36,077 bases of DNA, from IMG/VR virus record IMGVR_UViG_2851971941_000001, positions 1-36,077 of that record; one strand, given 5' to 3'. The notes beneath the pieces were generated by a model. The model made no database searches and was not told the DNA's origin. It saw only the letters and a program-made list of their open reading frames with translations. The translations under genes and the position numbers were made by a program. Origin of the DNA: a virus (lineage: Duplodnaviria > Heunggongvirae > Uroviricota > Caudoviricetes). The number at the start of each line of letters is the position of its first letter. The stretch's first letter is position 1. Shown here piece by piece: positions 2,067 through 34,442 of this stretch.

Positions 2067-3080
2067 TTACTCTACTGTGGACACTGTGTGGACACTCTCG
2101 GCCTCAGTACCACCTCTTAGCGGATTAAGAGAAATGGCGTCCTGAAGGTACTCTGGCGCAAAATGAGCGTAAACCATAGTTTGCTCAATCCGCGTGTGAC
2201 CTAGTATCCGTTGTAGCGTGATAATACTTCCTCCATTAATCATGAAATGAGTGGCAAAGCTGTGCCTTAGTGCATGTGTGGCTTGCCCCGTTGGCAAATC
2301 CGGTTTTATTGCTTTCATTGTTCGTCTGAAGCGAGGGTAATCAGCATCAGGGAATAAAAAACCTCGTTTGTTATCCGCGATCATTTTGGCAACAGCCTCT
2401 GAGATCGGGACGGTGCGTGGTTTGTTTGTTTTCGTTTTAACAAACGTGACGCGGTTATGGATGATATTTTCTGCTTTCAAACGAGCTGCTTCTCCCCAAC
2501 GTGCTCCTGTACTCAGGCAAAGAATCGCAATCTTTTTATTGTCGCCGTCAAGTGCTGCAAGCAGTAAGGCAATTTCTTCCTGTGTGAGATAGCCTGTTTC
2601 TGGTTTTTCCTCCTTAAGCCTCTTTGTCCCTCTGATAGGGTGCTCACCAAAGAATAACTCCGCTTCAATCAGGGCTGTAAACATGCCGCTAATACATGTT
2701 AAATCACGATTGATACTCGAAGGTTTAATACCCTGACTTCTTCGGGTGGCGCAGTACTGGCTGATAAGGGATTTCGTGATTTGAAATGCGCATGGGTCAT
2801 TCGTTATTTTTGTGAAGATTTCAATTTTTCCAAGATTAGATTTCCCATGCTCTTCGTGTTTACCCTTTAAATCCCACCAGATCTGTGTCAGTTCCGACAG
2901 ACGTCGTTTGTCTGTTGGTTTTGATAGCCATTCTTTATTGTGGTGGTTGTACAACGTGTATTTTTCGAAAGCGACAGCTTCGCTTTTCTTATCAAACTTC
3001 CTACGGATGCGTTTTCCGTTACGTCCAGTAGGGCGGATGTCCACTTCATATCGACCATCATCGAGTTTTTTGATTGCCAT
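2067..3080 (-). CDS. int: Tyrosine site-specific integrase, P2 Int-like (337 aa)
   Basis: 337 aa, the same length as P2 Int; C-terminal catalytic signatures HALRHSFATHF and LGHTRIEQTMVYAHF (R/H-x-x-R and catalytic Tyr); adjacent to att core. Confidence 0.9.
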   Translation of the reverse strand: MAIKKLDDGRYEVDIRPTGRNGKRIRRKFDKKSEAVAFEKYTLYNHHNKEWLSKPTDKRRLSELTQIWWDLKGKHEEHGKSNLGKIEIFTKITNDPCAFQITKSLISQYCATRRSQGIKPSSINRDLTCISGMFTALIEAELFFGEHPIRGTKRLKEEKPETGYLTQEEIALLLAALDGDNKKIAILCLSTGARWGEAARLKAENIIHNRVTFVKTKTNKPRTVPISEAVAKMIADNKRGFLFPDADYPRFRRTMKAIKPDLPTGQATHALRHSFATHFMINGGSIITLQRILGHTRIEQTMVYAHFAPEYLQDAISLNPLRGGTEAESVHTVSTVE

Positions 3081-5384: not shown

Positions 5385-5656
5385 GTATTCGTATTGAAAT
5401 TGGCGAACGTTATGTCGTTACCAGTGACAGCTTTCAGTTTATTCTCCACGAGAAAAAGAGAGCGGAAAGCGGTAAAAACGCCGGTCAGGAATGGCTGGCG
5501 GTGGTTGGTTATTACCCGAAATTAAGCCAGCTCGTTTCCGGCCTGATGCATCACGATATTCTGACCGGAAGCGCAAAGTCTTTTGCTGATTTAAACGCGC
5601 AGGTTGAGCAACTCAGCAGGCGTTGTTCAGAGGCTTTTGGCTCATATGGCCGTTAA
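5381..5656 (+). CDS. Small early protein, P2 orf83-like
   Basis: 91 aa; ATGA overlap with upstream gene; synteny. Confidence 0.5.
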   Translation: MSIRIEIGERYVVTSDSFQFILHEKKRAESGKNAGQEWLAVVGYYPKLSQLVSGLMHHDILTGSAKSFADLNAQVEQLSRRCSEAFGSYGR

Positions 5657-7919
5657 AGCCTCCGGGCGTTTTGTCCCTCCGTCAGCATTTGCCGCAGGCA
5701 CCGGTAAGATGTTTACCGGTGCTTATGCATGGAACGCGCCACGCGAGGCTGTCGGGCGCGAAAGACCTCTTACACGTGATGAGATGCGTCAGGTGCAAGG
5801 TGTTTTATCCACGATTAACCGCCTGCCTTACTTTTTGCGCTCGCTGTTTACTTCACGCTATGACTACATCAGGCGCAATAAAAGCCCGGTGCACGGGTTT
5901 TATTTCCTCACATCCACTTTTCAGCGTCGTTTATGGCCGCGCATTGAGCGCGTGAATCAGCGCCATGAAATGAACACCGATGCGTCGTTGCTGTTTCTGG
6001 CAGAGCGCGACCAGTATGCGCGCCTGCCGGGAATGAATGACAAGGAGCTGAAAAAGTTTGCTGCCCGTATCTCATCGCAGCTTTTCATGATGTATGAGGA
6101 ACTCTGCGATGCCTGGGTGGATGCGCATGGCGAGAAAGAATCGCTGTTTACGGATGAGGCGCAGGCTCACCTCTATGGTCATGTTGCTGGCGCTGCACGT
6201 GCTTTCAATATTTCCCCTCTCTACTGGAAAAAATACCGTAAAGGACAGATGACCACGAGGCAGGCATATTCTGCCATTGCCCGTCTGTTTAACGATGAGT
6301 GGTGGACTCATCAGCTTAAAGGCCAGCGTATGCGCTGGCATGAGGCGTTACTGATAGCTGTCGGGGAGGTCAATAAAGACCGTTCTCCTTATGCCAGTAA
6401 ACATGCCATTCGGGATGTGCGTGCACGCCGCCAGGCAAATCTGGAATTTCTTAAATCGTGTGACCTTGAAAACAGGGAAACCGGCGAGCGCATCGACCTT
6501 ATCAGTAAGGTGATGGGCAGTATTTCTAATCCTGAAATTCGCCGGATGGAGCTGATGAACACCATCGCTGGAATTGAGCGTTACGCCGCCGCAGAGGGTG
6601 ATGTGGGGATGTTTATCACGCTGACCGCGCCGTCAAAGTATCACCCGACTCGTCAGGTCAGAAAAGGCGAAAGTAAAACCGTTCAGCTTAATCACGGCTG
6701 GAACGATGAGGCATTTAATCCAAAGGATGCGCAGCGTTATCTCTGCCGCATCTGGAGCCTGATGCGCACGGCATTCAAGGATAATGATTTACAGGTCTAC
6801 GGTTTGCGTGTCGTCGAGCCACACCACGACGGAACGCCGCACTGGCATATGATGCTTTTTTGTAATCCACGCCAGCGTAACCAGATTATCGAAATCATGC
6901 GTCGCTATGCGCTCAAAGAGGATGGTGACGAAAGAGGAGCCGCGCGAAACCGTTTTCAGGCAAAGCACCTTAACCGGGGCGGTGCTGCGGGATATATCGC
7001 GAAATACATTTCAAAAAATATCGACGGCTATGCACTGGATGGTCAGCTCGATAACGATACCGGTAAGCCGCTTAAAGATACTGCCGCGGCTGTTACCGCA
7101 TGGGCGTCAACGTGGCGCATCCCGCAATTTAAAACGGTTGGACTGCCGACAATGGGGGCTTACCGTGAACTACGCAAATTGCCTCGCGGCGTCAGTATTG
7201 CTGATGAGTTTGACGAACGCGTCGAGGCTGCTCGCGCTGCCGCAGACAGTGGTGATTTTGCGTTGTATATCAGCGCGCAGGGTGGGGCAAATGTCCCGCG
7301 CGATTGTCAGACTGTCAGGGTTGCCCGTAGCCCGTCGGATGACGTTAACGAGTACGAGGAAGAAGTCGAGAGAGTGGTCGGCATTTACGCGCCGCATCTC
7401 GGCGCGCGTCATATTCATATCACCAGAACGACGGACTGGCGCATTGTGCCGAAAGTTCCGGTCGTTGAGCCTTTGACTTTAAAAAGCGGCATCGCCGCGC
7501 CTCGGAGTCCTGTCAATAACTGTGGAAAGGTCACCGGTGGTGATACTTCGTTACCGGCTCCCACACCTTCTGAGCACGCCGCAGCAGTGCTTAATCTGGT
7601 TGATGACGGTGTTATCGAATGGAATGACCCGGAGGTCGTGAGGGCGCTCAGAGGTGCATTAAAACACGGACTGAGAACACCAAATCGTCAGCAAAGAAAC
7701 GGAAGCCCGTTAAAACCGCATGAAATAGCGCCATCAGCCAGGCTGACCCGGTCGGAACGATTGCAAATTACCCGTATCCGTGTAGACCTTGCTCAGAACG
7801 GTATCAGGCCGCAGCGATGGGAGCTTGAGGCGCTGGCGCGTGGTGCAATTGTGAACTATGGCGCAAAAGAATTTCATTACCATGTTCAGAAGGCGTGGGA
7901 AGCATTTTCGAGGTGGTAA
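5646..7919 (+). CDS. A: Rolling-circle replication initiator/endonuclease, P2 gpA-like
   Basis: ORF 5604..7919 (771 aa); probable start at internal Met MAVKASGRF; contains HxH-type motif PHWHMMLF and a two-tyrosine active-site motif YIAKYISK typical of rolling-circle Rep proteins; size close to P2 A. Confidence 0.85.
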   Translation: MAVKASGRFVPPSAFAAGTGKMFTGAYAWNAPREAVGRERPLTRDEMRQVQGVLSTINRLPYFLRSLFTSRYDYIRRNKSPVHGFYFLTSTFQRRLWPRIERVNQRHEMNTDASLLFLAERDQYARLPGMNDKELKKFAARISSQLFMMYEELCDAWVDAHGEKESLFTDEAQAHLYGHVAGAARAFNISPLYWKKYRKGQMTTRQAYSAIARLFNDEWWTHQLKGQRMRWHEALLIAVGEVNKDRSPYASKHAIRDVRARRQANLEFLKSCDLENRETGERIDLISKVMGSISNPEIRRMELMNTIAGIERYAAAEGDVGMFITLTAPSKYHPTRQVRKGESKTVQLNHGWNDEAFNPKDAQRYLCRIWSLMRTAFKDNDLQVYGLRVVEPHHDGTPHWHMMLFCNPRQRNQIIEIMRRYALKEDGDERGAARNRFQAKHLNRGGAAGYIAKYISKNIDGYALDGQLDNDTGKPLKDTAAAVTAWASTWRIPQFKTVGLPTMGAYRELRKLPRGVSIADEFDERVEAARAAADSGDFALYISAQGGANVPRDCQTVRVARSPSDDVNEYEEEVERVVGIYAPHLGARHIHITRTTDWRIVPKVPVVEPLTLKSGIAAPRSPVNNCGKVTGGDTSLPAPTPSEHAAAVLNLVDDGVIEWNDPEVVRALRGALKHGLRTPNRQQRNGSPLKPHEIAPSARLTRSERLQITRIRVDLAQNGIRPQRWELEALARGAIVNYGAKEFHYHVQKAWEAFSRW

Positions 7920-8029
7920 TCTAAATATGAAAAATCTGCACACCGAAACACTCTTGTAGGTTGATAATTTGCAAACTAGGTGGATTTACTCTTTGATGTG
8001 TAAGAAGTTATACTACAAAAAATTGATTT

Positions 8030-8950
8030 ATGGGCTTGGCGATGTATAACGATCCTTATAGTGACCCAAAAGCGTGGGAATCATATTTCAAAAATATTGT
8101 TTGGCTACATTATAAGCCTGCTAACTGTTGTGACTTGCCAGATGAGCATGGAGGCGACTTTGGGCTGGAGTGTTACACTCTGAGTGGTCATGTTTTTCAG
8201 TGTTACTTGCCTGAGCAGTCGAGTGATATTGATAAGCTTTATAAAGCGCAACAAAAAAAGATTTATACTGATATAAAAAAGTTTTCTCAGGATAACATTA
8301 AAGAATTAGAGGAGCTTTTTGGCACATTAAAAATTAGCCGCTGGATATTAGCTACACCATATAATAAATCGGCGAAATTAAGTCAATATTGCACAAAAAA
8401 ATCATTAAAAGTAAGAGAGTTAGGGATTTCTTACGTTGCTGATGATTTTCAAATAGTAGTGCAAACAGATCGAAATTATATAGAAGAAGCGTTCTTTCTT
8501 CGCAAAAATAACTATCAATTAAGCTTTAATATAAATGATGCGACGGCTGAGAATGCTGCTAACTTTATTAGTGAAAATACATCTTTTTTAGATAAGCTAA
8601 ATTTAAAATTACCTAAGATAAATGATGATGTATCTAGGCAGGGTTTATATAGAGAGTTTTTAATACAAAAATATCTTGATTATCAAAACTTGCTGGATGC
8701 TTTGAAGAGAGACTGGGTTGATATCTATGAAATTATCTATAACTGTGTTCAACATAGAGAACGTAATTTGGTAGGTCTCTTTCTTCTTACTTCATCAGAT
8801 GCGAAACCATCAGATATAATGAAAGATGAAATCGCTTTGTTAAAGAAATGTATTGAAGAGGAAGTTAGTACGCTTAAACAGGCTGACTTGGATAAGATAA
8901 CATGGGGAGTTATTTCTGATTGGCTTATAAGATGCCCTTTAGATTTTTAG
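8030..8950 (+). CDS. Cargo operon gene 1: 306-aa protein of unknown function, candidate effector of a defence system
   Basis: AT-rich ORF; first gene of a three-gene unit with 1-bp intergenic gaps; N-terminal Cys/His/acidic cluster CCDLPDEHGGDFGLECY...GHVFQCY; no confident family assignment. Confidence 0.6.
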   Translation: MGLAMYNDPYSDPKAWESYFKNIVWLHYKPANCCDLPDEHGGDFGLECYTLSGHVFQCYLPEQSSDIDKLYKAQQKKIYTDIKKFSQDNIKELEELFGTLKISRWILATPYNKSAKLSQYCTKKSLKVRELGISYVADDFQIVVQTDRNYIEEAFFLRKNNYQLSFNINDATAENAANFISENTSFLDKLNLKLPKINDDVSRQGLYREFLIQKYLDYQNLLDALKRDWVDIYEIIYNCVQHRERNLVGLFLLTSSDAKPSDIMKDEIALLKKCIEEEVSTLKQADLDKITWGVISDWLIRCPLDF

Positions 8951-8951
8951 A

Positions 8952-9428
8952 ATGGAAAAGCAAATGCATATAACGATAGATGAAATAATAGGAAGGCCGT
9001 TTACGTTTAATAAACGACCTGAACATTTGCCATGTGATATGAGACCATTGTGGCGTTGCAGTTTGTTGCTGATAATATTCCTTGTCACAGGGAGAGCTGG
9101 TTGCTGTTCTTTAAAAAAACTTCATTTAATTAATTGGATGTTAAAGTCAGAGAATAATGAAGCAATGTTTGAATTCTGGCTTTTAAACAAAGAAGGTTTA
9201 AAGCCTGAAGTAAGATTGGATCCAACTTTAGATAGAGCAATACAGCTATTATTAGCAGAGGATTTTATTTTGAGAAATGAACGAGCGTTCAAAATAAATG
9301 AAAAGGGGCTTAAGGTCGCTGAGAAATTGCTTTCTCTTGATGTGTTCAAAGAAGAAAGGTTGGTGCTAAATAAACATAAGGCTGGACTGTCCGAAACTAA
9401 CATTAATAAAATATTTCAGGTGGGTTAA
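8952..9428 (+). CDS. Cargo operon gene 2: 158-aa protein of unknown function
   Basis: ATG 1 nt after upstream stop and stop 1 nt before downstream ATG (translational coupling); AT-rich; no recognisable motif. Confidence 0.55.
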   Translation: MEKQMHITIDEIIGRPFTFNKRPEHLPCDMRPLWRCSLLLIIFLVTGRAGCCSLKKLHLINWMLKSENNEAMFEFWLLNKEGLKPEVRLDPTLDRAIQLLLAEDFILRNERAFKINEKGLKVAEKLLSLDVFKEERLVLNKHKAGLSETNINKIFQVG

Positions 9429-9429
9429 T

Positions 9430-11451
9430 ATGTCGTTGGAAATTATTTCATTGGAGTTAGTAGCAAATACTTCGGATGGGCGTTATGGTGTTAGTATACC
9501 TTTTTCAAATGGCTTGTTTTTATTAAGAGTTGAGAATTCTCATGGTAAATCAACTTGCATGAATGGGATTGCATATGCACTTGGGATGGAAAAGGCATTA
9601 GGTGTCGGTTCTGGAAAAATCCCATTCCCTCCATCTTTGACTAGAGCACTAACGACAAAAGATAATGTTGAAGTTAGTGTAATATCATCTTATGTTTTGC
9701 TAAAAATAAAGAATCATAAGGGAATAGAAGCATCTTTGAAAAGGAATATTATCGGTCACGATAATAATAATGTTATTTATATAGATGAGAAGAATAATGT
9801 AAAAAGTAAGAGTGGTACTTATTTTTTACATAGAGAGGGCGATACTGAAAGGGAACGTGGTTTCTATAAGTGGTTAGCTGATTTTATAGGTTGGAGTTTG
9901 CCAAATGTTCCAAACCATAATGGGAAGGACACTATTCTTTATCCATCCGTACTTTTCCCTGCATGGTATGTTGAGCAAAAAAAAGGATGGTCGTCAATTA
10001 TGGCGACTGTACCAACACAATTTGGAATTAAAGAGCCAAAGAAAAGAGCTCTAGAATTTTTAATGTCTCTTGATGTTAATGATAATATTTTATTGCGTAG
10101 TTCGTTAAGAAATGAACTTGATATTATTTATCATGATTGGAAGTTAATTAAACACAATGCAGAAGTTATTGCTTCTAAATTGTCGTCAGTTGTCACAGGG
10201 ATTCCTGAACAACCAGTGGCAAAATTTGATCATTATAAGATAGATTTGATTATTAAAAATGGTAGTGTCGTTAGATCTATTGTTGATGTTCGTAATGAAC
10301 TGGAAAAAGAGTTGCAAGAAATTAAGTTTGACACTCTTGGTGAGCAAGAAGAACAAACTTTACAATTATCAGTGGTTAAGTTATTAGGTCAAAAAAATGA
10401 TGAAATTAACTCTCTGGAATTAAAGATTAAAGAGATTTGTGAGCATAGAAGTTATATTCAATATCAAATTCAGGCGACCAAAAACAGATTGTATAATCTG
10501 TTGGAAGATAAAAGGAAGTATGAAGATTTAAAGAAAATATCATCTTCGGATGCGTATAAGTCAACAGATTTAATGTCAAATATTTGTCCGACTTGTGGTG
10601 CAAGTTATAATGATAATTTGCTAAGTTTTTCATCGCAAGAAAATCTGATGACATATGAAGATAGTTTGAACTTTATTAAAGAGCAAGTAAAAGCATTTGA
10701 GTTTGTTCTGTCGGATAGTGAAAAGCAATTAAAGCTTAAAGATGTTGAGAGGAGTGATTTAGAGGGGGAAATAGCCAAGATTAGAGTTGATATTAATGCA
10801 TTAAGGGAGTCAAAATATCCCTCAATGGTTGTTCAGGAGGAGTTTCTGAGACGTAAAATAAACATTGAGAATAAAATTAATGCCATTAACGATGGCATTA
10901 AAAGTATATTGGACATTAGACTGGAGTTGGATTCATTACACCGTAGATATAAAAAGCTTATCGCGAAAAGAAAAGGATTGCCAGATAATTTCTTGTCGCG
11001 TAATGATGCCGATAAGTTAAAATTTCTTAATAAAGAAGTCGTTGCACGATTAGAAAAATATAATTTTACAAGTTTTGATTCTAAACTTGTGTCAATATCA
11101 GAAGATAATTACTTACCTACTAGGGAAGGATATGATATAGGTTTTGACACATCAGCTAGTGATGGAATAAGAATCATTTGGGGTTATTTAATAAGTTTAT
11201 TTGTTGTTGGTTCTAAATTTCAAACAAATCACCCTGGATTGATTGTGTTTGATGAGCCTCGTCAACAAGAAGCAAATAAAGTAAGTTTTGCCGAGTTACT
11301 TAAAGATGCTGCAGAAACAACAAAAGGACAAGGGCAGATCATTTTTGCTACATCAGAAGATGAAAATGTCTTAAAAGAGGCATTAGAAGGGTATGACTAT
11401 ACAATGATATCCTTTGATAAGAACAATGGGAAATTGTTGAGGAAATTATAA
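9430..11451 (+). CDS. Cargo operon gene 3: SMC/Rad50-like ABC ATPase with coiled-coil and central CxxC hook-like motif (673 aa)
   Basis: Walker A-like ENSHGKST (nt 9544..9555 encode GKST); Q-loop-like YVEQKKG near residue 183; long E/K/L-rich heptad-like region about residues 290-540 with CPTC at residues 386-389 (nt 10585..10596); Walker B LIVFDEP (DE at nt 11251..11256) then IIFATSED; no TOPRIM or nuclease domain after the ATPase. Confidence 0.75.
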   Translation: MSLEIISLELVANTSDGRYGVSIPFSNGLFLLRVENSHGKSTCMNGIAYALGMEKALGVGSGKIPFPPSLTRALTTKDNVEVSVISSYVLLKIKNHKGIEASLKRNIIGHDNNNVIYIDEKNNVKSKSGTYFLHREGDTERERGFYKWLADFIGWSLPNVPNHNGKDTILYPSVLFPAWYVEQKKGWSSIMATVPTQFGIKEPKKRALEFLMSLDVNDNILLRSSLRNELDIIYHDWKLIKHNAEVIASKLSSVVTGIPEQPVAKFDHYKIDLIIKNGSVVRSIVDVRNELEKELQEIKFDTLGEQEEQTLQLSVVKLLGQKNDEINSLELKIKEICEHRSYIQYQIQATKNRLYNLLEDKRKYEDLKKISSSDAYKSTDLMSNICPTCGASYNDNLLSFSSQENLMTYEDSLNFIKEQVKAFEFVLSDSEKQLKLKDVERSDLEGEIAKIRVDINALRESKYPSMVVQEEFLRRKINIENKINAINDGIKSILDIRLELDSLHRRYKKLIAKRKGLPDNFLSRNDADKLKFLNKEVVARLEKYNFTSFDSKLVSISEDNYLPTREGYDIGFDTSASDGIRIIWGYLISLFVVGSKFQTNHPGLIVFDEPRQQEANKVSFAELLKDAAETTKGQGQIIFATSEDENVLKEALEGYDYTMISFDKNNGKLLRKL

Positions 11452-11574
11452 ACTTTTATGTTGCTGCATTAGAATGCATGATTATTGTTTATCTGTTAAG
11501 AGTGCTCCGTGCCAGTGTCGGCGCGGAGAAATCATGTCATGCACCTGCATTAAAACCGACCCATGAAGCGGGCG

Positions 11575-11593
11575 GGCGAGGCGGGGAAAGCAC
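11575..11593. other. Candidate cos site: 19-nt GGCGAGGCGGGGAAAGCAC
   Basis: Exact 19-mer seen in the GC-rich non-coding stretch between the cargo operon and Q, the expected cos position; the match to the P2 cohesive-end sequence is recalled from memory, not looked up. Confidence 0.6.
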
Positions 11594-11735
11594 TGCGCGC
11601 TGGCGGTGGTGCTGATTTTATTTTTTCAGCGTCTGAGCGCGTCGTGATGGCGTTTAGATTGTTCGCCGGGGCGTTGGTGTGTCTGCGGGATGTTTTGTGC
11701 GGTGGTGAGCGTGTGAGGGCGTGATGACAGGGTGT

Positions 11736-11756
11736 AAAAAGCCGCCCGCAGGCGGC
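11736..11756 (-). terminator. Rho-independent terminator of the P-Q operon (minus strand)
   Basis: On the minus-strand transcript: GCCGCC-UGCG-GGCGGC hairpin followed by UUUUU, immediately after the Q stop codon. Confidence 0.6.
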
Positions 11757-11761
11757 GATGT

Positions 11762-12796
11762 TCAGCCGTTGTCAGTGTCCAGTGAGTAGTTTTTAAAGCG
11801 GATGACCTCCTGACCTAGCCAGCCGTTTATCTCGCGGATCCTGTCCTGTAACGGGATAAGCTCATTGCGGACAAAGACCTTTGCCACTTTCTCAATATCA
11901 CCCAGCGACCCGACGTTCTCCGGCTTGCCGCCCATCAACTGAAAAGGGATGCGGTGCGCGTCCAGCAGGTCTGCGGCGCTGGCTTTTTTGATATTAAAAA
12001 AATCGTCCTTCGTTGCCACTTCACTGAGCGGGATAATTTTAATGCCGTCGGCTTTCCCTTGCGGGGCATAGAGAAACAGATTTTTAAAGTTGTTGCGGCC
12101 TTTCGACTTCACCATGTTTTCGCGGAGCATTTCGATATCGTTGCGATCCTGCACGGCATCGGTGACGTACATGATGTATCCGGCATGTGCGCCGTTTTCG
12201 TAATACTTGCGGCGGAACAGCGTGGCCGACTCATTCAGCCAGGCAGAGTTAAGGGCGCTGAGATATTCCGGCAGGCCGTACAACTCCTGATTAATATCCG
12301 GCTCCAGCAGGTGAAACACGGAGCCGGGCGCGAAGGCTGTCGGCTCGTTGAAGGATGGCACCCACCAGTAAACATCCTCTTCCACACCACGGCGGGTATA
12401 TTTTGCCGGTGAGGTTTCCAGTCTGATGACCTTACCGGTGGTGCTGTAACGCTTTTCCAGAAACGCATTACCGAACACCAGAAAATCCAGCACAAAGCGG
12501 CTGAAATCCTGCTGAGAAAGCCACGGATGCGGAATAAACGTTGAAGCCAGAATATTGCGTTTAACGTAAATCGGTGAGCTGTGATGCACGGCAGCACGCA
12601 GGCTTTTTGCCAGACCGGTAAAGCTGACCGGTGGCTCATACCATCTGCCGTTACTGATGCATTCGACGTAATTCAGAATGTCACGGCGGTCGAGTACCGG
12701 TACCGGCTCACCAAAGGTGAATGCCTCCATTTTCGGGGCGCTGGCGGTGATTGTTTTTGCCGCAGGTTGCGGTGTTTTCCCTTTTTTCTTGCTCAT
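11762..12796 (-). CDS. Q: Portal protein, P2 gpQ-like (344 aa)
   Basis: 344 aa, the same length as P2 gpQ; start overlaps stop of P; first genes to the right of cos on the opposite strand. Confidence 0.85.
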   Translation of the reverse strand: MSKKKGKTPQPAAKTITASAPKMEAFTFGEPVPVLDRRDILNYVECISNGRWYEPPVSFTGLAKSLRAAVHHSSPIYVKRNILASTFIPHPWLSQQDFSRFVLDFLVFGNAFLEKRYSTTGKVIRLETSPAKYTRRGVEEDVYWWVPSFNEPTAFAPGSVFHLLEPDINQELYGLPEYLSALNSAWLNESATLFRRKYYENGAHAGYIMYVTDAVQDRNDIEMLRENMVKSKGRNNFKNLFLYAPQGKADGIKIIPLSEVATKDDFFNIKKASAADLLDAHRIPFQLMGGKPENVGSLGDIEKVAKVFVRNELIPLQDRIREINGWLGQEVIRFKNYSLDTDNG

Positions 12797-21013: not shown

Positions 21014-21799
21014 TTATGAGTGGTTTTTATTTGATGCTTTGTATTCTAAAACCTTCTTATTGGCGTAAAGGAATTTTGCATATGACAGGAATATAAGCAG
21101 ACCTGAAATGAAATAGGTTAGGGATATTATTAATAATGTTTTTCTGTGGCTGTTATTATCTTTGATCTCCTGACTTAACCATTCGGAGTCCTCCTCGTTT
21201 AGCTGTAAGAGCTTATTGCAGGCGATTTCAGGAAGTGTGTCTTTTATAAATACGTTTTGCAGTCTCTTGCAATCGGCAAGGCTATAAGTTTTATTAAATT
21301 CAACTGCTTTATTTTTGAAGGATAAAAGAACTTTGTCACTATAAACATAGTACATCATGTTTTTATATGGTATACCTATGGCATCCCTTACTATAGCGGA
21401 TTGTTCATTGTGTATGTAACATGCGAAGATAATATAAAGAATTCCGGCCAGGACTGCACTCATTGTTTTTGTGATGCATAGCGGTTCTGTTATGTCTCCC
21501 CAGAAGCGAGTAAGGAAAAAATCCGATGTTTTTAGTTTTCCATCAATCAGCCCCTGCTGTATCATTCTCACATCTTCGATGCCTGATACATTGATTCCGT
21601 TAAGTGTTTTAAATAGTTGAATGTCGCGCCACTCGCGGTCCAGTCTTTTTAATTTTTTGTCTGAATATCCAAATTTGAAATAATGTGCAATAAGCCTCAT
21701 AAGGTTACTTTTACCAAAGCTAAAAAATGCTAATACTGCAAAGACCAAAAGATACAAAACGATTAGCTCCCACACATTAGTCACATTATAGCTGACCAT
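21014..21799 (-). CDS. Cargo gene at S-V junction: 261-aa multi-pass membrane protein of unknown function
   Basis: Strongly AT-rich, opposite strand to the flanking late operons (the position P2 uses for orf30); hydrophobic segments LIVLYLLVFAVLAFFSF, AVLAGILYIIFACYI and LLIISLTYFISGLLIFLSY. Confidence 0.6.
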   Translation of the reverse strand: MVSYNVTNVWELIVLYLLVFAVLAFFSFGKSNLMRLIAHYFKFGYSDKKLKRLDREWRDIQLFKTLNGINVSGIEDVRMIQQGLIDGKLKTSDFFLTRFWGDITEPLCITKTMSAVLAGILYIIFACYIHNEQSAIVRDAIGIPYKNMMYYVYSDKVLLSFKNKAVEFNKTYSLADCKRLQNVFIKDTLPEIACNKLLQLNEEDSEWLSQEIKDNNSHRKTLLIISLTYFISGLLIFLSYAKFLYANKKVLEYKASNKNHS

Positions 21800-27029: not shown

Positions 27030-27539
27030 ATGGCAGTAATTCCTAGACGAAACGCACCAAGTAAAAAAATGATCTGGCAATACTGGATTGACAATGGAAT
27101 TCAAAGAGGTTTGGATGATACGCGCTATGATAATGCGTGTGATTTCAATGTATGTGTCTGCTGTGGCCGCGAATCCTCGAAATTGGAGAGGGCGCATATT
27201 ATCCCTCACTCATTAGGCGGAAGTAATGATGTCTCAAATTATATTCTGCTATGCAGTAAATGCCATAGAGAAAGCCCAGATATTGCTAATGAATCTGCGC
27301 TTATTGAATGGATGAATGAGCAACCTACTGAAATGGACAGCATGTTAAAACTAATCCAACAGGAAATGGATAAATATAATAAAGAAACTCAAATGGAAGT
27401 TGATGAGGTTCAGATTAAAGAGATTTTCAGTGATTTATTTAAAAGGGCAGGGACGCATGGTGGTAGATTTTCTGATGCAACCAAGGTGTATATTATTAGG
27501 GAGGCTTTGAAAAAAATATTTAGTCAGACTGCTTTATGA
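27030..27539 (+). CDS. Cargo gene at G-FI junction: HNH endonuclease-domain protein (169 aa)
   Basis: ORF 27015..27539 begins on TTG; likely ATG at 27030 with GAGGAG ribosome-binding site; HNH signature CVCCGR...ERAHIIPH...SNDVSN...LLCSKCH (paired Cys plus His-Asn-His); AT-rich. Confidence 0.75.
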   Translation: MAVIPRRNAPSKKMIWQYWIDNGIQRGLDDTRYDNACDFNVCVCCGRESSKLERAHIIPHSLGGSNDVSNYILLCSKCHRESPDIANESALIEWMNEQPTEMDSMLKLIQQEMDKYNKETQMEVDEVQIKEIFSDLFKRAGTHGGRFSDATKVYIIREALKKIFSQTAL

Positions 27540-34223: not shown

Positions 34224-34442
34224 ATGTTTCATTGTCCTTTATGCCAGCATGCCGCACATGCGCGTACAAGCCGCTATATCACTGACACGACAAAAGAGCG
34301 TTATCACCAGTGTCAGAACGTGAATTGCAGCGCCACGTTCATCACTTATGAGTCGGTACAGCGATACATCGTGAAGCCGGGAGAAGTCCACGCCGTAAGA
34401 CCGCACCCGTTGCCGTCAGGGCAGCAAATTATGTGGATGTAA
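34224..34442 (+). CDS. ogr: Late-gene transcriptional activator Ogr (zinc finger, 72 aa)
   Basis: Internal ATG at 34224 gives 72 aa MFHCPLCQHAAHARTSRYITDTTKERYHQCQNVNCSATF with CxxC...CxxxxC zinc-binding pattern; last gene before attR. Confidence 0.85.
   Translation: MFHCPLCQHAAHARTSRYITDTTKERYHQCQNVNCSATFITYESVQRYIVKPGEVHAVRPHPLPSGQQIMWM

Follow-up and report, generated by a model that had tools for sequence, protein, structure and literature searches.

A three-gene block in the gpA–cos hotspot of a P2-like Escherichia coli prophage is very probably a short type-II Lamassu system with a predicted restriction-endonuclease-fold effector

The Lamassu systems for which structures have been solved, DdmABC/LmuACB of Vibrio cholerae (9nxx, 9ny1) and LmuACB of Salmonella enterica (9hqx, 9hr5), share the gene order A-C-B and combine an SMC-like LmuB and a small LmuC with an LmuA that consists of an N-terminal PD-(D/E)xK-fold domain and a helical C-terminal domain. 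In these solved systems LmuB2-LmuC sequesters the C-terminal domain of LmuA, and this domain subsequently brings about tetramerisation (PMC12663957; bioRxiv 10.1101/2025.03.14.643221); it is for the Vibrio and Salmonella systems only that an LmuA1-LmuB2-LmuC1 complex is known to sense DNA ends and to release LmuA, which then oligomerises. By the length of LmuB, Lamassu systems fall into a 'short' (~600 amino acids, aa) and a 'long' (~800 aa) class (PMC12663957), and the zinc hook varies among short Lamassu and hence does not strictly define them. Here we describe a block of three plus-strand genes at positions 8030–11451 of a tailed-virus sequence of 36,077 nucleotides (nt; IMG/VR record IMGVR_UViG_2851971941_000001, positions 1–36,077; hereafter the window). 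This block is very probably a short type-II Lamassu (LmuA-LmuC-LmuB; ABC-three-component/DdmABC-like) anti-phage and anti-plasmid system, carried as AT-rich moron cargo.

In a scan against PADLOC-DB v2, each of the three proteins matched Lamassu models over nearly its full length, and none of them matched any other defence system. LmuA aligned to PDLC03852 (E = 1.1e-29, 102 bits) with residues 12–299 on profile positions 19–333 of 336, a match that includes both of its domains; LmuC aligned to PDLC03871 (E = 2.5e-23, 81 bits) with residues 17–156 on positions 1–148 of 156; and LmuB aligned to PDLC03863 (E = 1.1e-98, 330 bits) with residues 1–669 on positions 1–604 of 610, nine further LmuB models being matched more weakly. 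It is this end-to-end match of all three proteins that links the block to the PADLOC Lamassu models (Lamassu-Fam, Millman 2022/DefenseFinder). As the scores are moderate (102, 81 and 330 bits), the enterobacterial clade appears to be divergent within the family and not seed-like. More general resources were uninformative: Pfam and NCBIfam gave nothing above threshold for the three proteins (AAA_23 in LmuB being sub-threshold only), Pfam gave nothing above threshold for any of the 47 LmuA family members, and PHROGs returned exact-length families of unknown function, which explains why RefSeq calls all three proteins hypothetical. An earlier note on this DNA had proposed a compact defence-type operon in the P2 gpA–cos hotspot, with the order LmuA-LmuC-LmuB of a type II Lamassu and an SMC/Rad50-class ABC ATPase as its third gene; the location of the block and the Lamassu matches of all three proteins bear out the first two points, and the LmuB models, the motifs described below and weak Rad50/SMC matches bear out the third.

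The gene for LmuB (9430–11451, 673 aa, plus strand) encodes an SMC/Rad50-like ABC ATPase whose motifs are intact. Across 33 homologs the Walker A, signature and Walker B motifs are invariant, and ~330 residues separate the two halves of the head. Walker A reads NSHGKST (9535–9555, plus strand; N36, G39, K40 and S41 invariant), the ABC signature-like motif is SASDG (residues 575–579, 11152–11166, plus strand; A576, S577 and D578 invariant, S575 nearly so) and Walker B is LIVFDE (11239–11256, plus strand; D608, E609, P610 and Q612 invariant); E182-Q183 is likewise invariant. A zinc hook, CPTC (residues 386–389, 10585–10596, plus strand), lies at the apex of the coiled coil, with C386, P387 and C389 invariant, and the Salmonella LmuACB has such a hook as well. 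Being 673 aa long, and thus nearer to ~600 than to ~800 aa, with a single CxxC, LmuB appears to fit the short Lamassu class. When it was compared with the Protein Data Bank (PDB), only weak matches to Rad50 and SMC heads (P-loop) were obtained, along with keratin coiled-coil noise.

This weak resemblance of the head to Rad50 and SMC, together with the proposal that Lamassu derives from SbcCD (PMC12663957), could be taken to mean that a housekeeping operon for DNA repair or chromosome maintenance (SbcCD/Rad50-Mre11-like or SMC-like) has come to lie in a prophage by chance. We give this explanation almost no credence, given that just 0.6% of E. coli genomes have the block, in every case as AT-rich cargo, that it occurs patchily and in association with mobile elements, that LmuB has LmuA and LmuC (by PADLOC) as partners and no Mre11/SbcD phosphoesterase, and that STAND-type conflict proteins have the effector domain as well.

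The identity of the effector emerged from structure prediction. An AlphaFold model of LmuA, built from a 47-sequence alignment (predicted local distance difference test, pLDDT, 87.4; predicted template modelling score, pTM, 0.75), divides the protein into an alpha/beta N-terminal effector domain of the restriction-endonuclease (REase; PD-(D/E)xK) fold (~residues 1–160; 8042–8524, plus strand) and a helical C-terminal domain (8525–8950, plus strand), presumed to serve docking and oligomerisation, within which lies an invariant tail, DWLIRCPLDF (8918–8947, plus strand). With the full-length model, the top Foldseek matches were the solved LmuA chains 9nxx and 9hr5 (probability 1.00 to 0.91). The N-terminal domain alone, in which the model shows the PD-(D/E)xK core fold alpha-beta-beta-beta-alpha-beta, matched almost purely PD-(D/E)xK nucleases (fold-match scores in parentheses): FokI (9.3), CdiA-CT EC869 (8.7), N.BspD6I (8.5), R.BspD6I (8.1), Can2 (7.9), Upx (7.8), AF1548 (7.6), NgoMIV (7.5), LlaBIII (7.4), Avs4 (6.8), McrC (6.2) and NucC (6.1), with Cap4 reaching 5.4 only. 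Since no solved LmuA was among the top 60 fold matches of this domain, the full-length match to LmuA comes mainly from the C-terminal domain. By the model, then, the N-terminal domain is a REase-fold module of a non-Cap4 type. The earlier note had found no signature in the first protein that could be assigned to a known effector family; this holds for Pfam and NCBIfam, neither of which has a match, and no longer holds for structure prediction, which provides both a REase-fold effector and an LmuA C-terminal domain.

A profile search with the N-terminal domain among 1.84 billion representatives retrieved 760 clusters (50% identity), of which 341 had E <= 1e-30; most of the proteins retrieved are ~300 aa long. 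The domain also heads a 1083-aa nSTAND_NTPase5/TPR protein and two ~1205-aa iHD-CE/HD-CE proteins (P0354, P0320, P0356). Because of its presence on STAND-NTPase/TPR and iHD-CE proteins, the domain appears, from sequence comparison, to be a portable effector module that conflict systems other than Lamassu employ as well.

Column counts over 150 representatives of the LmuA family define a signature, GDxGxE...QxY...KxxxDxxK, that spans residues 42–84 (8153–8281) and for which we found no family description that explains it. Its core is the motif GDFGLECYTLSGHVFQCY (8153–8206, plus strand; D43, E47, Q57, Y59): D43 and Q57 are each found in 150/150 representatives, G42 and G45 each in 149/150, and the position of E47 holds E in 137 and D in 13 of the 150. 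The remainder, KIYTDIKK (8258–8281, plus strand), lies in a helix (residues 67–88) that follows the strand of residues 54–58, and is equally well conserved (K77 150/150, D81 147/150, K84 149/150). Judged by fold position in the model (strand 2, strand 3, then helix), GDxGxE...QxY would be the equivalent of a D...(D/E)xK in which Tyr has replaced the lysine. The LmuA family thus lacks the canonical form of the catalytic triad of strands 2 and 3, D...(D/E)-x-K, as the K position of the triad is held by Y or F; K77, invariant and located on the helix that comes next, is a plausible candidate for a relocated catalytic lysine.

Several results weigh against reading the block as a working Lamassu nuclease system. 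The position of the canonical beta-3 lysine, Y59, is Tyr in 146 and Phe in 4 of the 150 representatives and never Lys; with the lysine replaced in 150/150, the predicted nuclease chemistry is not guaranteed. The Foldseek template modelling (TM) scores of LmuA against solved LmuA are low (0.29), and the relative arrangement of its domains therefore differs from that of solved LmuA. Neither LmuA nor LmuB gave a sequence match to the solved Lamassu chains of the PDB, with single sequences or profiles, and LmuC, compared as a single sequence only, gave no match to them either. When the block was compared with the Lamassu-Mrr system of E. coli SE15, only the LmuB head could be aligned (hhalign probability 81%). 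We found no experimental report on this Lamassu subtype in the literature, and no sequenced phage isolate in the collection searched carries the system, as judged by LmuB. The candidate sigma-70 promoter of the operon (TTTACT-18-TATACT; 7985–8014, plus strand), which lies within the 122 nt that separate the gpA stop codon from lmuA, is recognised by consensus alone, matching at 9/12 positions, and AT-rich cargo of such a kind may be silenced by H-NS (bioRxiv 10.64898/2026.09.05.749240).

PD-(D/E)xK enzymes in which the lysine is missing or relocated include BamHI, BglII and Cfr10I/NgoMIV. The replaced lysine nevertheless raises the question of whether the effector is a DNA nuclease at all, as a Lamassu-type sensor might instead be coupled to an RNase, to a DNA-binding or blocking module or to a scaffold that recruits a host factor. 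We consider such a non-DNA-nuclease effector quite improbable: D43, E47 and Q57 are conserved and accompanied by an invariant K77 on the adjacent helix, as is usual for an active site; it is the DNA-cleaving domains of FokI, BspD6I and the CdiA-CT DNases that match the fold best; and the lysine-less or lysine-relocated enzymes just named show that such active sites exist. In Cap4-type LmuA, on the other hand, the beta-3 lysine is essential, as seen with K57A and K68A mutants (PMC12663957; bioRxiv 10.1101/2025.03.14.643221). We see only a small chance that the N-domain family is an uncharacterised branch of the REase fold with a rewired active site, a substrate or chemistry unlike that of Cap4-type effectors and, with it, a mechanistically distinct Lamassu subtype; if this were true, the effector could be, e.g., a nickase, an RNase or a structure-specific nuclease.

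The short type-II Lamassu reading leaves the question of which described system the block resembles most, and on sequence grounds the operon is not close to any Lamassu that has been tested or solved. It differs from the solved type-II systems in having (i) a non-Cap4 effector without the beta-3 lysine; (ii) a canonical Walker B DE; and (iii) a shorter LmuA. Identity with Lamassu-Cap4 (DdmABC-like) was rejected, as the N-terminal domain is not of the Cap4/DUF4297 kind, scoring 5.4 only against Cap4. Lamassu-Mrr of E. coli O150:H5 SE15 (system SG108 of Millman 2022, experimentally validated) likewise comes from E. coli, has the order A-C-B and carries a REase-type effector; its motif GDKGRD...YQCKHY resembles GDFGLE...FQCYLP of our LmuA by eye, without statistical support, and SE15 LmuA keeps the catalytic lysine where LmuA here has Tyr. 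Identity with this system was also rejected, as the LmuA proteins align with an hhalign probability of 0.14 and the LmuC proteins show no BLASTP similarity; the two appear to be different subtypes. Mrr-like structures do occur among the fold matches of the N-terminal domain (AF1548 7.6, LlaBIII 7.4, Avs4 6.8), and Pfam Mrr_cat matched none of the 47 LmuA family members. Since the likeness to Mrr lacks statistical support, we call the domain REase-fold only and assign it to no subfamily.

A further candidate was Rst_3HP, a validated anti-P1 system of the P2 hotspot that consists of three genes without a clear domain (Rousset 2022, PMC9122126). Identity with Rst_3HP was not supported: PADLOC gave Lamassu models only (PADLOC v2 being assumed to include Rst_3HP models), and our peptides are absent from the file of cloned systems. 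The P2 genes old and tin share with the block the cos-proximal position between gpA and gpQ and a prophage-borne exclusion role; their proteins and mechanisms are unrelated to those discussed here, and neither gene is present in this prophage.

LmuC is the small middle component. In Shewanella, Pseudomonas and Leptolyngbya, too, the homologs of lmuA and lmuB flank a gene of its size (152–161 aa), so that LmuC is conserved in this position in four genera. The table of Rousset 2022 flags '1 TM in protein 2' for LmuC (PMC9122126), and a hydrophobic stretch, LWRCSLLLIIFLVTGRAGCC, is found at 9011–9076 (residues ~20–41 of the 158-aa open reading frame, ORF). LmuC of two other Lamassu subtypes was labelled winged helix-turn-helix (wHTH) by Millman 2022, and the sole Pfam match of our LmuC is a sub-threshold one to HTH_45 (E = 0.13). 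Because of these wHTH labels and the HTH_45 match, the hydrophobic stretch is more likely to be a buried helix than a membrane span.

The system as such is already known. The gpA–gpQ hotspot was defined by Rousset et al. 2022 (PMC9122126), and Lamassu-family members occur in those prophage hotspots (Millman 2022). In Table S5B of Rousset 2022, P2-hotspot system #51, 'AAA_13/DUF3732' (79 occurrences), has an LmuA (302 aa) and an LmuC (154 aa) identical to ours and an identical LmuB, given from an internal start, in the same gpA–gpQ hotspot; Table S5A gives the same genes as 'hypothetical + hypothetical + hypothetical', unnamed and with no function (PMC9122126). As the peptides of the operon are absent from the table of cloned systems of that study (PMC9122126), system #51 was apparently outside the set tested there. 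When we scanned ten LmuA family members, including the N-terminal domains fused to STAND and iHD-CE proteins, 10/10 matched the single PADLOC model PDLC03852, full-length members with 96–125 bits and the N-terminal domain alone with 67–79 bits on profile positions ~14–185. An LmuA subtype that has this effector and C-terminal domain is therefore already part of the Lamassu catalogue. A literature search for 'SMEK' returned one mention, in the paper of Haudiquet et al. (PMC12663957), and otherwise mostly the unrelated eukaryotic SMEK1. The suggestion of the earlier note that the block may be an undescribed variant is thus contradicted by PDLC03852 (PADLOC-DB v2, 2023) and by Rousset system #51.

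The cargo was found in 32 of 5426 complete E. coli genomes (~0.6%), always on the chromosome and with at least 99.5% identity, and the P2 flanks in 2156; diverged copies of the cargo were absent from these genomes, even with sensitive blastn. The earlier note had proposed a horizontally acquired, variable cargo and had named a conserved core component of P2-like phages as the finding that would speak against it; 32 genomes with the cargo compared with 2156 with the flanks agree with the former and not with the latter. In one strain, FDAARGOS_1249 (NZ_CP069459.1), the match to 7900–11760 is split by an IS5-family transposase; as 8030–11451 matches in one piece, the insertion lies in flanking sequence. 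Outside E. coli, the tightly packed trio (~300, 152–161 and 673–679 aa) was encountered in three other settings with unrelated contexts: between housekeeping genes in Shewanella baltica, in Pseudomonas sp. MM211 and in a Leptolyngbya element with ParAB, NERD-UvrD and an integrase. Homologs of LmuB are also encoded on plasmids of several phyla (Pantoea, 63% identity; Anabaena, rhizobia, Agrobacterium and Arthrobacter, ~31%). Judged from these comparisons, the block is a variable cargo and an autonomous module.

That homologs are frequent on plasmids is one of three points that would fit a main role other than anti-phage defence, be it the exclusion of plasmids or satellites, competition between prophages (e.g., with P4 or rival P2-like phages) or selfish addiction; the other two are that both plasmids and phages are eliminated by DdmABC of V. 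cholerae, and that systems of the P2 hotspot can act on P2 relatives (Rousset 2022, PMC9122126). However, such a role would differ from the proposed one in target and not in kind, all tested, working Lamassu systems of the literature gave phage protection, and the block has no antitoxin-like gene and no sign of addiction, so that we regard a main role of this sort as very unlikely.

The earlier note had placed the ORFs on the plus strand at 8030–8950 (306 aa), 8952–9428 (158 aa) and 9430–11451 (673 aa), coordinates and sizes that we found to be correct; they are not chance ORFs, being so long in DNA of 33% guanine plus cytosine (GC) and having hundreds of homologs each. The true starts, however, are probably at 8042 for lmuA (8042–8950, plus strand, 302 aa) and at 8964 for lmuC (8964–9428, plus strand, 154 aa). 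These starts are favoured because (i) RefSeq annotates them (302 and 154 aa); (ii) most LmuA homologs in the 47-sequence alignment start at a residue aligned with M5; (iii) LmuC homologs are 152–161 aa long; and (iv) a GGAA-type ribosome-binding site is present ahead of 8964 and none ahead of 8952. Of the 1-nt intergenic gaps described earlier, the one between lmuC and lmuB therefore stands, with the ribosome-binding site AGGTGGG before lmuB, while a start at 8964 makes the gap between lmuA and lmuC ~13 nt instead of 1 nt.

The window, which shows 100% identity to E. coli PSUO2 (NZ_CP011915), comprises a complete P2-like prophage that lies between yegR and yegQ and has an integrase gene at 2067–3080 and ogr at 34224–34442. 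To the left of the three-gene block lies the gene for the replication endonuclease gpA (5646–7919, with its stop codon at 7919) and to the right that for the portal protein gpQ (11762–12796, minus strand), so that the block occupies the tin/old position between gpA and cos/gpQ, as had been noted before. Homology to P2-like phages is lost at ~7874–7876 and resumes at ~11530–11541; from these ends and from the GC content, we delimit the variable cargo segment of the gpA–cos hotspot to 7877–11530 (~3.65 kb), directly adjoining cos. Its base composition is, as previously stated, unlike that of the backbone: GC is 0.31–0.35 over 8001–11500 and 0.50–0.58 on either side, with 0.333 for the cargo segment as a whole, compared with 0.532 in its left and 0.553 in its right flank. 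Outside the system, and given here for context, the sequence GGCGAGGCGGGGAAAGCAC (11575–11593, plus strand), a 19-mer that we take to be the P2 cos cohesive-end sequence, has an exact single match (0 expected by chance). A strong intrinsic terminator (GCCGCCTGCGGGCGGC followed by TTTTT; 11741–11756, minus strand) is located just downstream of the portal gene Q and belongs to the P2 backbone between cos and Q.

Two further low-GC stretches were observed elsewhere in the prophage. One, a moron of ~0.35 GC at 21014–21799 (minus strand), encodes a 261-aa hypothetical protein on the strand opposite to the late genes, between gpS (virion morphogenesis) and the baseplate gpV, which is the position of P2 orf30; this protein had no PADLOC or Pfam match at E <= 0.01. 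The other, at 27030–27539 (plus strand), encodes a 169-aa HNH endonuclease (HNH_5, E = 1e-10) at the Z/fun position, between the tail-fibre assembly gene product gpG and the sheath protein FI; it weakly matches the HNH parts of mREase_IV and DpdF in PADLOC, and either a defence gene or a homing endonuclease would be conceivable.

For the Lamassu operon, we infer the trigger, the stoichiometry, the nuclease activity and the phages targeted by analogy with the Vibrio cholerae and Salmonella systems (PMC12663957; bioRxiv 10.1101/2025.03.14.643221; Millman 2022). Two LmuB subunits, joined by the CPTC zinc hook and by their folded coiled coils, would, together with LmuC, sequester the helical C-terminal domain of one LmuA monomer and thereby keep that monomer inactive. 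LmuA would be released once the LmuB heads encounter the DNA ends or replication intermediates of an incoming phage or plasmid and engage each other in an ATP-dependent manner. Free LmuA might then oligomerise through its C-terminal domain and thereby pair its N-terminal REase-fold domains in a FokI-like manner, upon which DNA would be degraded and the infected cell would die (abortive infection). The FokI-like fold requires dimerisation for double-strand cleavage and would therefore fit activation by oligomerisation.

Taken together, these results mainly confirm that P2-like prophages use the gpA–cos hotspot for interchangeable defence cassettes, Lamassu among them. They also point to a gap in annotation, as RefSeq, Pfam, NCBIfam and PHROGs leave these proteins hypothetical, and their practical value lies in correct labels for ~0.6% of E. 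coli genomes, including O145:H28 outbreak and avian pathogenic strains. What is of interest beyond this is a large and widely shared family of putative REase-fold effectors in which the canonical catalytic lysine appears to be universally replaced, and a Lamassu subtype that bears such an effector, combines a canonical Walker B DE with a zinc hook and stands far apart from all systems that have been solved or tested. This subtype bears on whether the release-and-oligomerise model of Lamassu extends beyond Cap4 effectors.

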